DNA from: a virus
Lineage: Duplodnaviria > Heunggongvirae > Uroviricota > Caudoviricetes
Strand: one strand, 5' to 3'
DNA: 64,000 nt
Virus record (IMG/VR): IMGVR_UViG_3300047160_006104
Location: 29,865 to 93,864 of that record
Part shown: positions 13,881 to 43,314 of the stretch, in pieces
Layout: the number at the start of each line of letters is the position of its first letter
How positions within the stretch are numbered: the stretch's first letter is position 1
Notes under the pieces: generated by a model
Told to the model about the DNA's origin: nothing
Seen by the model: only the letters and a program-made list of their open reading frames with translations
The model's database searches: none
Made by a program: the position numbers and the translations under genes

Positions 13881-13910
13881 CCCAGAATTATACACCACCG
13901 GGCTGGCATC

Positions 13911-14372
13911 CTACGATAGGCTTCGGCCCCTGGTGTGATGGTTACGCCGCGGCGGCGGCGACACATCATCAGACAACAACACCATCTGCCCCGCCTGACG
14001 CGTCAACGGGATTCTCGCCGGATCCTCCCTAGAACGCAGATACAGACCATGACGACGCGCCGTGGATAACGATGTATCCGCCGAATCGCTCACCCAGCCA
14101 TGACACGCATGACACAAATGCACAATGTTCGCCGGGGTCCAGCCGCCCCCCACCGAGCGGGGAACGCGGTGATGCATTTCGGTGGCCCGCGCTTTGCAGC
14201 AATATTCACAAACCCCGCCGGAACGGTTACTGACCGCCTCACGCACAGCCTTCTCATCCCACATGAACGCAGGCTGGCCTGACATCGGACACCACACACC
14301 TTTGTCCGCGTGATGAACCGACAACACGCCATCAACGACAGGGGCCGGCCGAGCGCATTCAGGACACAACAC
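13911..14372 (-). CDS. HNH endonuclease
   Basis: 'CEYC..HHRVPRSVGGGWTPANIVHLCHACH' HNH core. Confidence 0.6.
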   Translation of the reverse strand: MLCPECARPAPVVDGVLSVHHADKGVWCPMSGQPAFMWDEKAVREAVSNRSGGVCEYCCKARATEMHHRVPRSVGGGWTPANIVHLCHACHGWVSDSADTSLSTARRHGLYLRSREDPARIPLTRQAGQMVLLSDDVSPPPRRNHHTRGRSLS

Positions 14373-14538
14373 CGCAAACCTGTTCTGTCAGCCACTGCTG
14401 CCCGGCGCGGCGCGCGTCGGTCTTACGTGTATATAGCTTCGGCCCGTAATACATCGCGCCTCCCGGGGTCGCGTACGTCCACCGATATTTACCGCTGGCG
14501 GTTTTCTCCACATCCAACTCGCCGCCGGGAGTCATCCC
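14359..14538 (-). CDS. hypothetical small protein
   Basis: ORF 14359..14658. Most plausible start at internal Met (MTPGGELDVEK...). Confidence 0.3.
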   Translation of the reverse strand, partial: GMTPGGELDVEKTASGKYRWTYATPGGAMYYGPKLYTRKTDARRAGQQWLTEQVCGVVS

Positions 14539-14682
14539 AGATACCCCGCGAGCAGCCGACCTAGATACAACACCGCATGAGCGAACGCTAACTGTCCCGG
14601 ATCGGTGACACCGGCCAGGTTCTCCATCGCGGTGTCGTAATGCTGCGCCGGGGTCCACCGCACATCCGCGGGCCAGTCGTCG

Positions 14683-14967
14683 TCACTGGGATTGCTCATA
14701 GCGGTCCCGCTCCTTGGGGTCGAAGAACACGATCGGCCACGCTGGTTTCACTCGTTGACCGTTCCGCAGGATCGCCCACCGACACAGAATTGAGCGGGAA
14801 TGCGGCATATCCCACCGCTGCAAGACCCCGTCGTGGAAGAACGCGATCACCACGGGGCGGCGTTTCACGTCCCAGCCCACCCAACCCAAGTCGTCGTTGT
14901 CCAGCACGCGGCGCTGCGCCCCAGTCAGCCGTGCACGGGCATTGCGGGTATGCATTTCGACTGTCAC
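14683..14967 (-). CDS. hypothetical protein
   Basis: GTG start 7 nt after TATAGT -10 with TGCCAGC box upstream (leaderless). Confidence 0.45.
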   Translation of the reverse strand: MTVEMHTRNARARLTGAQRRVLDNDDLGWVGWDVKRRPVVIAFFHDGVLQRWDMPHSRSILCRWAILRNGQRVKPAWPIVFFDPKERDRYEQSQ

Positions 14968-15047
14968 ACACCAGACTATAAAGCATCATGCTGGCATCTC
15001 GGCGTGTCTGACAGGACGTGTCGGTGCCCGGCAGTAGCGTCTGGCTT

Positions 15048-15923
15048 ATGAGTTGGATTGCGCGAGGACAAATAGGTTTCATCGAACCAGGCAGTCCCGA
15101 CCATGCTTTGTATATAAGCCCCAGCAAGGTCGCCTCCATCTGTGGGGTGTCGCGCTGGGAATCACCGTTCGCGCTGTGGAACCGGATGAAGCACCTGATC
15201 GCGCCCAAACCCCATCAGCCGTCGTTCGATGTCGGGTTGGCGATGGAGTTGGCGATGGCGCAACTGTGGAAGATTCAGCATCCCGGCTGGCGGCTCTCCC
15301 CGGGTGAGGTGCAGTACCACACCGACGAGTTCGGTTTTCCGGCGTTGGCGACCCTCGACCGCCGCGCCACCAGGGGCTCTAAACAGCGCATCCTCGAGAT
15401 GAAGATCGCCCGCGATCTGGGCGAGCTTGAGGCGTGGGGCGACCCGAGTCTGTCTGGGGACGCGCCCACCGACTATGTACTGCAGTGCATCGCCCAGCAG
15501 TTACTGACCGGACTGCAGGAACCTCTGGATTTGATGGTGTTAGGCCCGTATTACAAGGAACGGATTTACACGATCGAGTTCGACGAGACCATCGCCGGCT
15601 GGATGGTCAACCAGTGCCGTGACTTCTACGAGTCGCTGGCCGGTGATCAACCCCCGCCGCTGGATGACAGCGTGTCCTGCTACGACGCGGTGCGTGAACT
15701 GCATCCCGACATCGACGGCTCAATCGTGGAAGTCCCGATAGAGCTCGCTGAGCAGATCACCGACCTGCGTGGCGAGATCGGACCGCTGGAGGCGAAATTA
15801 CGGGGCCACAAATCTGAGCTGCTGAGCTTGATGGGCCGCGCTCAAACCGCTACCGCTAACGGGGTGCCGGTGGCGCGGCGCCAACCACACGCCCGCGGCG
15901 GCGTCGCCTTAGTGGTGCTGTGA
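15048..15923 (+). CDS. YqaJ-like (lambda-exonuclease family) recombination exonuclease
   Basis: 'SKVASICGVSRWESPFALW' YqaJ N-terminal signature. Leaderless ATG after conserved 'GGCAGTAGCGTCTGGCTT' box. Confidence 0.65.
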   Translation: MSWIARGQIGFIEPGSPDHALYISPSKVASICGVSRWESPFALWNRMKHLIAPKPHQPSFDVGLAMELAMAQLWKIQHPGWRLSPGEVQYHTDEFGFPALATLDRRATRGSKQRILEMKIARDLGELEAWGDPSLSGDAPTDYVLQCIAQQLLTGLQEPLDLMVLGPYYKERIYTIEFDETIAGWMVNQCRDFYESLAGDQPPPLDDSVSCYDAVRELHPDIDGSIVEVPIELAEQITDLRGEIGPLEAKLRGHKSELLSLMGRAQTATANGVPVARRQPHARGGVALVVL

Positions 15924-41315: not shown

Positions 41316-42544
41316 CAGAAGATCAGCTTCGCGACTTTAGGGATGGGCAGGCTGCGGGGCCGTTCATGTTCAGGCATCCCCAAAGACCCGCGCATGCCCG
41401 CCGGGTACACACCCGGACCACCCGACTGGCCCGGCATCGCGGCGGCGGGGATCATCGACCGGCCCGGCACCGCGACCGCCGTATCCGCAGACGCTTCGGT
41501 GGAGGTCGATGCCAGCGGCGCGGCGATCACCTTGGAGGGTTTGACCGACTCGGCCCACGCCGCCGGCACCGACAACCGCACCCCGTTACCGGGCAGCACC
41601 GCGCTGCGCCCTATGCTGGCCAGCGGGGTGGGCATCGAACCGAAGCCGGTGCCCACCCCCGGCACTGAACTCAACGTGTTGAGCGAGCTGCTGATCCCGC
41701 CCAGTCCAGTGCCAAGCCCATTGGTGAGTGCACCCATCCCCATCAGCGGCGCCAGGAACGACTGAAACCCGCTCAGGCTGGACAGCGGCGACGCCGCGGA
41801 TCCGAGTGAGCCGGGTGATCCGAGACTGCCTAGCATGCCGGGAATGCTGGACGCCATCTGCGGGGCCATGCCCGCCATCGACGCCGCGCTGCCCATCCCG
41901 GTCGGCATGCCCGCTAACTGTCCGCTGGCACCTGAGACTTGAGACCCGGCCTGCCCCGCGGACTGGCCCGCGGCCTGAGCCACGGCTGCGGCGTCGGCGG
42001 CGGGACCGGCCGGGTCGGCATCGGGGATCGGCGGCACAAACGGCACCATCCCCCCGGTGATCGCACTCAACTCACCCGCATACGCGGTCATTGTGGAAGC
42101 ATCGGTCGCCCAGTAGGTCGAGTATTCGGCCTCGTTCGCCGCAATGGCCGCGCTGTTCACCCCAAGGAAATTCGTCGCCACCAGCGTCGCCAATTCGGCG
42201 CGGTTCTCCGCGATCACTGCGGGATGAATGACTGCAGCATGTGCCGTCTCGAACGCGGTCGCCGTACCCATCGCAGCCAACGCATGTTCTTCAGCCTGCG
42301 CCGCAGTGGCGGTCATCCACGCCACATACGGCAACGCCGCCGAAAGCATCGTCATACTCGACGGCCCCAGCCAAGGGCCAGCCGTTAACGCACCGAGCAC
42401 CGCGTCGAAGGAAGCGGCTGAAACCCCAAGATCTGCCGCAAGGCTGGTCCATGCCGCTGCGGATGCCATGAGACTGCCGCTGCCCACGCCCCCATGCACC
42501 AGTCCACTGGTCACCTCCGGTGGCCAAGCCGCGTAGATGCTCAC
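41315..42544 (-). CDS. PPE family protein
   Basis: N-terminal ~180 aa matches PPE domain incl. 'AAWPPEV', 'PYVAWM', 'AIAANEAEY..W..DA'. Gly/Ser/Met-rich C-terminal repeats. GTG start with GGAGCGG RBS. Confidence 0.75.
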   Translation of the reverse strand: MSIYAAWPPEVTSGLVHGGVGSGSLMASAAAWTSLAADLGVSAASFDAVLGALTAGPWLGPSSMTMLSAALPYVAWMTATAAQAEEHALAAMGTATAFETAHAAVIHPAVIAENRAELATLVATNFLGVNSAAIAANEAEYSTYWATDASTMTAYAGELSAITGGMVPFVPPIPDADPAGPAADAAAVAQAAGQSAGQAGSQVSGASGQLAGMPTGMGSAASMAGMAPQMASSIPGMLGSLGSPGSLGSAASPLSSLSGFQSFLAPLMGMGALTNGLGTGLGGISSSLNTLSSVPGVGTGFGSMPTPLASIGRSAVLPGNGVRLSVPAAWAESVKPSKVIAAPLASTSTEASADTAVAVPGRSMIPAAAMPGQSGGPGVYPAGMRGSLGMPEHERPRSLPIPKVAKLIF

Positions 42545-42723
42545 GTCGCCCGCTCCATCCTTTCTTTGATTTCGTCGCCGCAGCGCCAGCACAGCCGGAA
42601 GCGGAAGGTCAATCCGCGCAACAGGCCATCTGCCATGCCGATCTGCGCGTATGCCTTGGGTTCGTTGTAACACCAGCGGTGACACCGCGCGCACCACAAC
42701 GACCGTGTAAAAGAAATGATCAT
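42541..42723 (-). CDS. zinc-ribbon small protein between PE and PPE
   Basis: 'WCARCHRWC ... CWRCGDE'. Confidence 0.4.
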   Translation of the reverse strand: MIISFTRSLWCARCHRWCYNEPKAYAQIGMADGLLRGLTFRFRLCWRCGDEIKERMERAT

Positions 42724-42733
42724 CGGCTCACCA

Positions 42734-43030
42734 TCAGAGCATGGTGGCCATGTTGGCAACCTCACAGCCCGCATACGACGCGGCGGCGGCACCGATGTTG
42801 GTCACGAACATAGCGTGAAACACGGCGCCCATCTGCGCGAACGCCTGATAGTCGGCGGAATGCGCCAGGTGCATGGCTGCGGCCAGGATGGAGGCCGGCT
42901 CGGGTGCGGGCGGTATGACGGAGGTGGTGGGGATCGCCGCACCAGCGTTGACACCTTCGACCTGGGCGCCGAGCGCGGCGAGCGTGCCGGAGGCCCCGGC
43001 GATAGCGGGTGAGGCTGCTTGCACGAACAT
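42734..43030 (-). CDS. PE family protein
   Basis: 98 aa. 'AIPTTSVIPPAPEPASILAAAMHLAHSADYQAFAQMGAVFHAMFVTNIGAAAASYAGCEVAN' = PE domain with YxxxE. Start preceded by GGATTGGAGCAGACAC. Confidence 0.75.
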   Translation of the reverse strand: MFVQAASPAIAGASGTLAALGAQVEGVNAGAAIPTTSVIPPAPEPASILAAAMHLAHSADYQAFAQMGAVFHAMFVTNIGAAAASYAGCEVANMATML

Positions 43031-43117
43031 GTGTCTGCTCCAATCCTTTTACCAGCGTGTGACCCAAATCATATGGCACCTGGCTGGCATTGTGAAGTCA
43101 TGGCTGTAATTTACCGG

Positions 43118-43267
43118 CTATTTCAGCCGCAGAATCATCACATTGAACACCCGTAACATGTCGATTCTGCGGTCACTGTCTTTGGTGGGTCGGGTCGACC
43201 ACGCCTCCCCGAACTGGTCCCACGTCACGTCGCGCTTGAACTGGATACGCTTCCTCAGTCTGTCCAT
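43118..43267 (-). CDS. small basic protein (MDRLRKR...)
   Basis: Leaderless ATG 6 nt after TATAAT with TGCCAGC box. Confidence 0.35.
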   Translation of the reverse strand: MDRLRKRIQFKRDVTWDQFGEAWSTRPTKDSDRRIDMLRVFNVMILRLK

Positions 43268-43314
43268 GCCACGATTATATAACACCATGCTGGCACTTGC
43301 GACGGTCGTGCTGT

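Follow-up and report, generated by a model that had tools for sequence, protein, structure and literature searches.

The 64,000-nucleotide (nt) stretch of DNA considered here (the window, positions 29,865 to 93,864 of IMG/VR virus record IMGVR_UViG_3300047160_006104) contains a set of promoters in which a short box, TGCCAG, lies upstream of the -10 hexamer as one arm of a 16-bp inverted repeat. The window has a G+C content of 62%. Scans with Pfam and PHROG have detected tail genes, a ParB-like gene, methyltransferases, RecE-like and RecT-like genes, lysin A and lysin B, together with DUF3631, SPFH/Band_7, glycosyltransferases, a PE/PPE pair, Lsr2, DUF932 and Ku. The Lsr2-like nucleoid protein, the Ku homologue and a small Ion_trans-domain protein are encoded at 56102-56722, 60509-61354 and 53692-54120 (minus strand), respectively. 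No match was obtained when the 11-23 kb and 36-46 kb regions were compared by megablast with 50,697 GenBank phage records, nor when the small leaderless proteins were used in tblastn. A minor tail protein is 49% identical to those of Mycobacterium abscessus prophages and Cluster Y phages, RecT is 36-42% identical to its best matches and Ku 34%, the best Ku matches being Mycobacterium phages of about 110 kb such as Thibault and Optimus. The tail, RecT and Ku proteins all share less than 50% identity with those of mycobacteriophages of several clusters. Owing to these distant similarities the source has been placed among the mycobacteriophages, and it is an uncultured, roughly 114-kb siphovirus-like phage, distant from those known; an identical sequence is present on a 113,757-bp metagenome contig of JGI.

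The composite motif, TGCCAGC-N4-TGNTN-TATA(A/G)T, is present in exact form at 13887-13908, 14975-14996, 39146-39167 and 43274-43295, all on the minus strand, and with two mismatches at 43068-43089 (TATGAT) and 22560-22581 (TGCCACC) on the same strand, giving six sites in the window against 0.02 expected. When the motif is reduced to its invariant core, GCCA-N6-TG-N3-TAT(A/G)NT, exactly seven sites are found, also against 0.02 expected, all of them directly abutting the TAT(A/G)NT hexamer. The seventh, on the plus strand at 30263-30284, had been overlooked in an earlier note on this DNA, where at least six promoters were said to share the motif; this is confirmed in part, by the four exact sites and that of the gene at 43030, whereas near 19270 the box stands in a different register. 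The bare heptamer TGCCAGC is mildly enriched, with 23 occurrences against 12.8 expected, and the signal resides in the composite motif, not in the heptamer. Among the matches listed from exact-motif scans of IMG/VR and GTDB genomes, single chance ones were found, mostly in unrelated or low-GC genomes. The heptamer spans -28 to -22, 9 nt from the -10 hexamer, and the earlier note was right to regard it as too near for a -35. A -35 element with a short spacer has accordingly been rejected, the 10-11 nt separation being far from the usual 16-19 nt. A sigma-54-like -24/-12 format has also been rejected, as the GG/GC pair is absent and Actinobacteria are not known to have sigma-54.

The start codon had been proposed to follow the hexamer by 6-7 nt. 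This is the case at the four exact sites, where an ATG or GTG is found at that distance (13880, 14967, 39139 and 43267) in a leaderless geometry, and the open reading frames (ORFs) behind them are coding-like, with a G+C content at third codon positions of 0.70-0.80. It is not the case for the PE gene at 43030, which has a 37-nt leader with GGAG, or for the gene behind the 19270 box, which also has a leader. Four of the seven core sites are leaderless, and the remaining three have leaders with a ribosome-binding site. Given these three, and leaderless promoters elsewhere in the window that have no box (for example at 61560 and 45656), the supposed tie to leaderless genes is loose. Strong promoters without the element are also present, at 61382, 58728, 61560 and 57037.

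The genes behind the core sites are varied. At 13887-13908 the repeat reads TGCCAG cccg GTGGTG (13893-13908) and is followed by TATAAT (13887-13892); the promoter drives a gene for a DUF732-domain protein (13230-13880). At 14975-14996 (TGCCAG catg ATGCTT, TATAGT) an in-frame GTG lies 7 nt past the hexamer and opens a gene for a 94-aa protein (14683-14967), and at 39146-39167 (TGCCAG ccgg GTGTTA, TATAGT) a gene for 102 aa (38831-39139) is driven along with downstream minus-strand genes. The promoter at 43274-43295 (TGCCAG catg GTGTTA, TATAAT) drives a gene for 49 aa (43118-43267). It is about 75% identical to that at 39146 over 40 nt, first codons included (ATGGACAGAC), and the two appear to have arisen by a recent duplication. 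Of the dyads in the window, that at 22560-22581 (TGCCAC ccga CTGGCG, TATAAT; minus strand) is the best; here a leader is followed by a small ORF (ATG 22520) and then by 21209-22399 (DUF3631) and 20740-21354. On the plus strand, the site at 30263-30284 (GGCCAT gact CTGGCA, TATAAT) has a perfect proximal and a weak distal arm, and heads an operon that includes the SPFH gene (31284-32732) and glycosyltransferases. Its 25-nt leader precedes an upstream ORF of 10 codons (30310-30345, plus strand; MLRALDIQAR), which has a strong GAAGGAG ribosome-binding site and is coupled to 30342-30770 by a TGATG overlap with the start of that gene. At 43068-43089 (TGCCAG ccag GTGCCA, TATGAT), where a -35-like TTCACA occurs at 17 nt, the promoter serves the PE gene (42734-43030), the PPE gene (41315-42697) and a further four that extend to 39306. 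Several of the genes behind the core sites, namely those for DUF732, SPFH and PE/PPE, have accessory envelope or secretion roles and are not of the usual early replication kind; the tie to early genes is loose as well.

In the PE/PPE operon (39306-43030, minus strand), two of the four genes behind PPE appear, by eye, to encode Gln/Ala-rich, secreted-looking proteins. In layout the operon is similar to the ESX-secreted toxin (PEST) cassettes known from M. abscessus prophages, with the difference that its PE and PPE domains are supported by Pfam. A string, GGA(A)CAGACA(C), is repeated at gene starts or immediately ahead of them, at 39128-39139, 43031-43041, 43257-43267, 60205-60215, 61356-61366 and 61541-61551. 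Two leaderless starts carry it as ATGGACAGAC, genes with leaders are preceded by it as GGAACAGACAC(C)ATG, and its placement at starts is striking; the GGAACAGACAC string is not enriched overall (22 found, 19 expected, with up to two mismatches). A second promoter family has been noticed on the minus strand at 61382-61412 and 58728-58758, before the Ku operon and the DUF932 gene. It is described by CTTGACTTGTTGGC...ACATG...TA(T/G)GATTGTGGTATAGA, with a good -35 (TTGACT) and an 18-nt, partly palindromic spacer.

Two further sites are less secure. At 19262-19289 on the plus strand (TTGTCA ga TGCCAG ccta GTGGTA) the final TA of the repeat opens the -10 hexamer TATGTT, so that the operator lies 2 nt nearer to the -10 than elsewhere, the box being 7 nt from TATGTT and 2 nt after TTGTCA. 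This promoter consists of a canonical TTGTCA -35, a 16-nt spacer and TATGTT, the gene starts behind a leader at TTG 19322, and the site is a doubtful member of the set. On the minus strand, 48097-48132 (TTGTCA ga TGACAT ttcg GTGGCG TATATC CATGAT) is weakly operator-like, with a mismatch at a core position that is invariant elsewhere; it heads a minus-strand operon (47703 to 45313) that ends in a gene for an XRE-family protein.

Relatives of this phage were sought in metagenome assemblies with the RecE-like protein, and five loci around the matches were taken, including those designated L153, L155, L156 and L157, while L161 (an NCBI assembly contig) and L163 were reached through the XRE protein. 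Searches for related loci with RecE in viral contigs and with Ku in metagenomes gave nothing useful. L153 is a 116.7-kb contig whose RecE is 65% identical to that of the window, with other shared proteins 36-59% identical. In this contig a perfect palindrome, TGCCAGgtagCTGGCA (TGCCAG gtag CTGGCA followed by TATAAT), has been found, and other copies read TGCCAG gcga CTGGCG with TATAAT, TGCCAG gccg GTGGCG with TATATT, and TGCCAG ttgg GTGGCG with TATAAT and an ATG 6 nt later. Four L153 copies abut TATAAT or TATATT, against 0.00 expected, and the repeats at L153 19186 and 12285 are perfect. One leaderless operator-promoter of L153 serves a gene for a 180-aa protein (7492-8034, minus strand), the N-terminus of which resembles, by eye, the helix-hairpin-helix C-terminal domain of the RNA polymerase alpha subunit. 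Two copies occur in L155 and three more in L161 and L163; the element is absent from the more distant relatives L156 and L157.

These copies reveal the architecture of the element. The inverted repeat, TGCCAG-N4-CTGGCA, is 16 bp long; it occupies -28 to -13, directly against the -10 hexamer, and the box forms its promoter-distal arm. Since the second arm is seen in the relatives, the TG.T. that had been described as a separate feature beside a 7-bp box is a remnant of that arm, and the two are arms of one repeat. In an alignment of 17 sites from five genomes, seven of them from the window, the distal TGCCA is kept in 15-17 of the 17 sites, and the bases of the proximal TGGCA in 17, 17, 10, 10 and 8. 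The 4-nt centre and the flanks are variable, and the -10 is TATAAT (ten sites) or a one-off variant, TATAGT occurring three times. At all 17 sites the register to the -10 is fixed and the repeat, which abuts it, overlaps the region contacted by RNA polymerase between -35 and +1. The arms of 6 nt, separated by 4 nt, have their centres 10 bp apart, or about one helical turn, as in repressor operators. A perfect palindrome at L153 12285, a copy at L153 9037 and that at window 19270 stand off this register or have no usable -10. PhoP-like direct repeats follow the scheme TCACAGC-N4-TCACAGC; this format has been rejected, as the relatives carry an inverted repeat and not a direct one.

The gene families behind the element are also retained, even though gene order is rearranged between the phages. 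Promoters of this kind precede DUF732 genes in the window, L153 and L155, SPFH/Band_7 genes in the window and, twice, in L153, and a homologue of 20740-21354 in L161. Intergenic sequence does not otherwise align between these phages, and the conservation therefore argues for function and not for recent copying. The suggestion that the box is a regulator-binding site was right in kind, as dyad and -10 are kept at 17 non-orthologous promoters in five phage genomes while centre and flanks vary. The original observation is real, and stronger than had been reported.

Two of the operator-promoters face promoters of another type, which have been assigned to the recombination genes. The mycobacterial PafBC motif, tGTCgg(N10)tA(N3)T, has its box at -28 to -23 and no -35, and its GTC is near-invariant (PMC8635444). 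It is non-palindromic, and one helix-turn-helix (HTH) of the activator contacts the DNA while the other contacts sigma region 4 (bioRxiv 612655). The sequence TGTCGGTG-N8-TANNNT matches exactly twice in the window, against 0.01 expected; both sites belong to this motif and both are intergenic. The first PafBC-type (RecA-NDp) promoter, at 15019-15040 on the plus strand, reads TGTCGGTG cccggcag TAGCGT ctggctt ATG, with 7 nt between TAGCGT and the ATG (15048) of the leaderless gene for the RecE-like exonuclease. The second, at 22617-22638 (plus strand; TGTCGGTG-N8-TAACAT), lies upstream of the RecT-like gene (22725-23729). The 86-nt leader of that gene (22640-22724, plus strand) includes a G+C-rich inverted repeat, CCCCCGAG...CCCGGGGG, which may form a hairpin in the 5' untranslated region. 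A looser third match, TTGTCACAC-N8-TAACGT, has been noticed at 17072-17093 on the minus strand.

The relatives again show the same arrangement. A TGTC box in the same register is found upstream of recE or its operon in four of them: TGTCGCCC-N8-TACGGT in L153 (9074-9095), TTGTCAGTG-N8-CAAGAT in L155, TTGTCATAC-N8-TAGTCT in L156 and TTGTCACAC-N8-TTTAAT in L157, with an ATG 7 nt later in L155 and L157. In L155, recT is also preceded by such a site (TGTCGGTG-N8-TAGCAT, ATG 6 nt later), the two L155 sites lying at 8093-8114 and 9788-9809. In both the window and L155, PafBC-type promoters stand back-to-back with operator-promoters at a distance of 22-35 nt (in the window, recE with 14975 and recT with 22560); the PafBC-type box of L153 is preceded, at 21 nt, by an operator-like repeat. 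At recET of the cultured phages Typha and Che9c, where these genes form part of long operons, the PafBC motif is absent.

These results also account for a second promoter family, GGCAGTAGCGT.CTGGCTT-ATG, that the earlier note had assigned to the ParB-like and exonuclease genes. The shared string, GGCAGTAGCGT(G)CTGGCTTATG, is real and present at 11417 and 15030, but it is not a separate motif: it consists of the spacer end, the -10 (TAGCGT), the discriminator and the start codon of one promoter type, and the recE copy matches the published PafBC motif. At 11417-11438 (plus strand), before the ParB-like gene (11436-12002), the -10, discriminator and start of recE are copied (GGCAGTAGCGTGCTGGCTTATG). 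This copy has no TGTC box at the PafBC register, the TGTCGGTG box being kept at the 15030 copy only. Taken together, the sites suggest that the phage recombination genes are wired to the host activator PafBC, which responds to single-stranded DNA (ssDNA) and DNA damage. No report of PafBC motifs linked to phage genes, including recE and recT, was found in the open-access literature, and this wiring is the less expected part of the findings.

The presence of a dyad element in the relatives led to its reading as an operator for a putative dimeric DNA-binding regulator. We put at about one half the probability that the 16-bp repeat is an operator whose bound dimeric regulator blocks polymerase at the promoters of accessory operons; what is observed is a motif with dyad symmetry that keeps a constant register and recurs beside the same gene families in related phages, and from this we infer protein binding and repression. 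In this mechanism, a dimeric HTH protein, to which the 10-bp spacing of the arm centres is suited, would bind the repeat on one face of the DNA and would fill the spacer of SigA-type promoters, thereby blocking RNA polymerase at targets that would otherwise be strong and are often leaderless. The accessory operons under such control would be those of DUF732, SPFH with the glycosyltransferases, PE/PPE, DUF3631 and several small proteins. A repressor is favoured because the -10 hexamers are near-consensus, those of the PafBC-type promoters of the same genomes being weak (TAGCGT, TAACAT, TACGGT, CAAGAT), because the L153 sites carry a TGATG-type -35-like hexamer directly upstream of the operator with a 16-nt spacer, and because copies of the operator exist off the standard register or without a usable -10.

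Several observations weigh against repression. In 15 of the 17 sites conservation is much stronger in the distal arm, at about -26, than in the proximal one, and the four leaderless window promoters and that at 22560 have no -35 hexamer with at least four of six matches. An activator taking the place of the -35 contact would also agree with both. In addition, lysogens of M. abscessus express the ESX-secreted toxin cassettes of their prophages (PMC10654092), and the likeness of the PE/PPE operon to these is awkward for a model with an immunity repressor. An activator that acts at -26 therefore remains a serious rival on account of the arm bias, the missing -35 and the PE/PPE likeness, although we hold it to be somewhat unlikely. 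The box would then be a -26-type activator element, with a regulator on the distal arm (-28 to -23) bridging to sigma region 4 in the manner of PafBC (sigma adaptation) or of the WYL activator SiwR, and it would define a second, lineage-specific regulon beside the PafBC promoters.

The comparison with PafBC bears on this rival in both directions. The register of TGCCAG-N10-TATAAT is that of the published motif, as TGCCAG lies 10 nt upstream of TAT(A/G)NT at all seven core sites; the box is three transitions away from TGTCGGTG, with G and C at the same positions at which they are read by PafB, and exact PafBC matches stand close by, back-to-back with box promoters. Nonetheless, the near-invariant GTC at -27 to -25 is replaced by GCC at all seven core sites (TGCCAG, TGCCAC, GGCCAT), and the PafBC motif is non-palindromic, whereas here the box is the arm of a dyad that is perfect in L153 and partial in the window. 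For these two reasons the box promoters do not belong to the PafBC class. The homodimeric SiwR of M. smegmatis also binds an imperfect palindrome between the -35 and -10 and depends on the -26 region (PMC10693628). None of the 50 window ORFs scanned with Pfam was found to encode a WYL-domain protein. The near-consensus TATAAT and the -35-like hexamers of L153 suggest promoters that would be independent of an activator, and the copies off register or without a -10 also speak against one. The more specific proposal that TGCCAG is the -26 element of a second sigma-adaptation-type activator, either phage-encoded or an uncharacterised host factor, working beside PafBC in the divergent regions, is unlikely. 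If true, the lineage would possess two regulons in parallel, neither of them dependent on a -35, with recE and recT on the host ssDNA-sensing PafBC and the accessory envelope and secretion genes on the other.

It is very improbable that a dedicated regulator is absent and that the spacer element is read directly by the host RNA polymerase with accessory factors, as a means of tuning promoter strength. The register fixed at 17 of 17 sites would agree with this, as would the fact that mycobacterial promoters often have no -35 and poorly defined upstream determinants (PMC8635444). However, dyad symmetry would have no role in asymmetric recognition by polymerase, a perfect palindrome occurs without a usable -10 (L153 12285), the strong window promoters listed above do without the element, and it is confined to one phage lineage, being absent from L156 and L157. 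Least probable of all is that one promoter cassette was copied round the genome by shared ancestry alone and that the box is functionless: the pair at 39146 and 43274 has that appearance, but at the other sites the central 4 nt and flanks differ while arms and -10 are kept, and these arms are met again in four further phages, in which protein identity is only 40-67% and intergenic sequence is otherwise unaligned.

With regard to the protein that would bind the operator, a 111-aa XRE-family HTH protein encoded at 45313-45648 (minus strand), leaderless from TACAGT (45656-45661), is a weak candidate, and a host factor is equally possible. Homologues 64-67% identical to it are present in L161 and L163, both of which carry operator-promoters, and in L161 one of these heads an operon that ends in the XRE gene. 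The closest annotated phage matches of the protein are repressors, the similarity being generic to the HTH domain. The operator-like sequences beside the window XRE gene are poor, including the weak one at the head of its operon (48097-48132), and no close homologue was found on the L153 contig, which carries a distantly similar XRE protein of 80 aa only; both points count against this candidate and the repressor with it. A conserved string, (T)GACACGCC, lies about 55-60 nt upstream of the XRE start in three phages (window 45700-45712, minus strand; L161 at about 9925; L163 at about 1055).

Taking the operator reading as a basis, the element would define a compact and testable regulon, in which at least seven promoters share a 16-bp operator, for a lineage of uncultured mycobacteriophages of about 114 kb, in a phage with the unusual cargo of a PE/PPE operon, SPFH, Ku and Lsr2. 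Its promoters, strong and mostly leaderless mycobacterial ones with a built-in operator, could serve as parts for regulated expression once the regulator has been identified. Should the PafBC-type promoters prove functional, the recombination genes of these phages would be coupled to a host sensor of ssDNA and DNA damage, as a LexA-independent counterpart of phage genes under SOS control.

The element shares features with several known systems and differs from each of them. A dyad operator within the -35/-10 spacer is also used by spacer-binding activators of the MerR family. MerR promoters have over-long spacers of 19-20 bp, which are untwisted by the protein; a mechanism of this type has been rejected on spacer length, as 16-18 nt separate the -10 from the -35-like hexamers where these are present. 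SiwR resembles the present case in its imperfect spacer palindrome and in the -26 region, and differs in its 19-bp palindrome, in a conserved GGA at -26 (CCA here) and in the position of its gene next to a single target operon. With PafBC promoters the box promoters have in common a bipartite layout, a box at -28 to -23 followed 10 nt downstream by the -10 hexamer, and the frequent absence of a -35, but the -10s of the former are weak (tANNNT) and those of the latter of consensus strength. The conserved inverted repeats of phiC31 and the gp71 stoperators of L5 are multi-copy repressor operators of actinobacteriophages. Cluster O phages carry 17-bp repeats, TGTTCGG-N3-CCGAACA (PMC4351075). As in these phages, a short conserved motif of the protein-binding type occurs here in many, mostly intergenic copies in the non-structural part of the genome, in association with SigA-like and often leaderless promoters, and the phiC31 and Cluster O repeats are likewise dyad-symmetric. 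The sequence is nonetheless different, the arms are asymmetrically conserved, and the repeat is locked in the spacer, ending at -13 in nearly every copy. The L5 stoperators, by contrast, are 13-mers without symmetry that stand independently of any -10, and the Cluster O repeats, to which no function has been assigned, occupy no constant position relative to promoters. The operator family described here is an addition to the already familiar multi-copy operators of phages.

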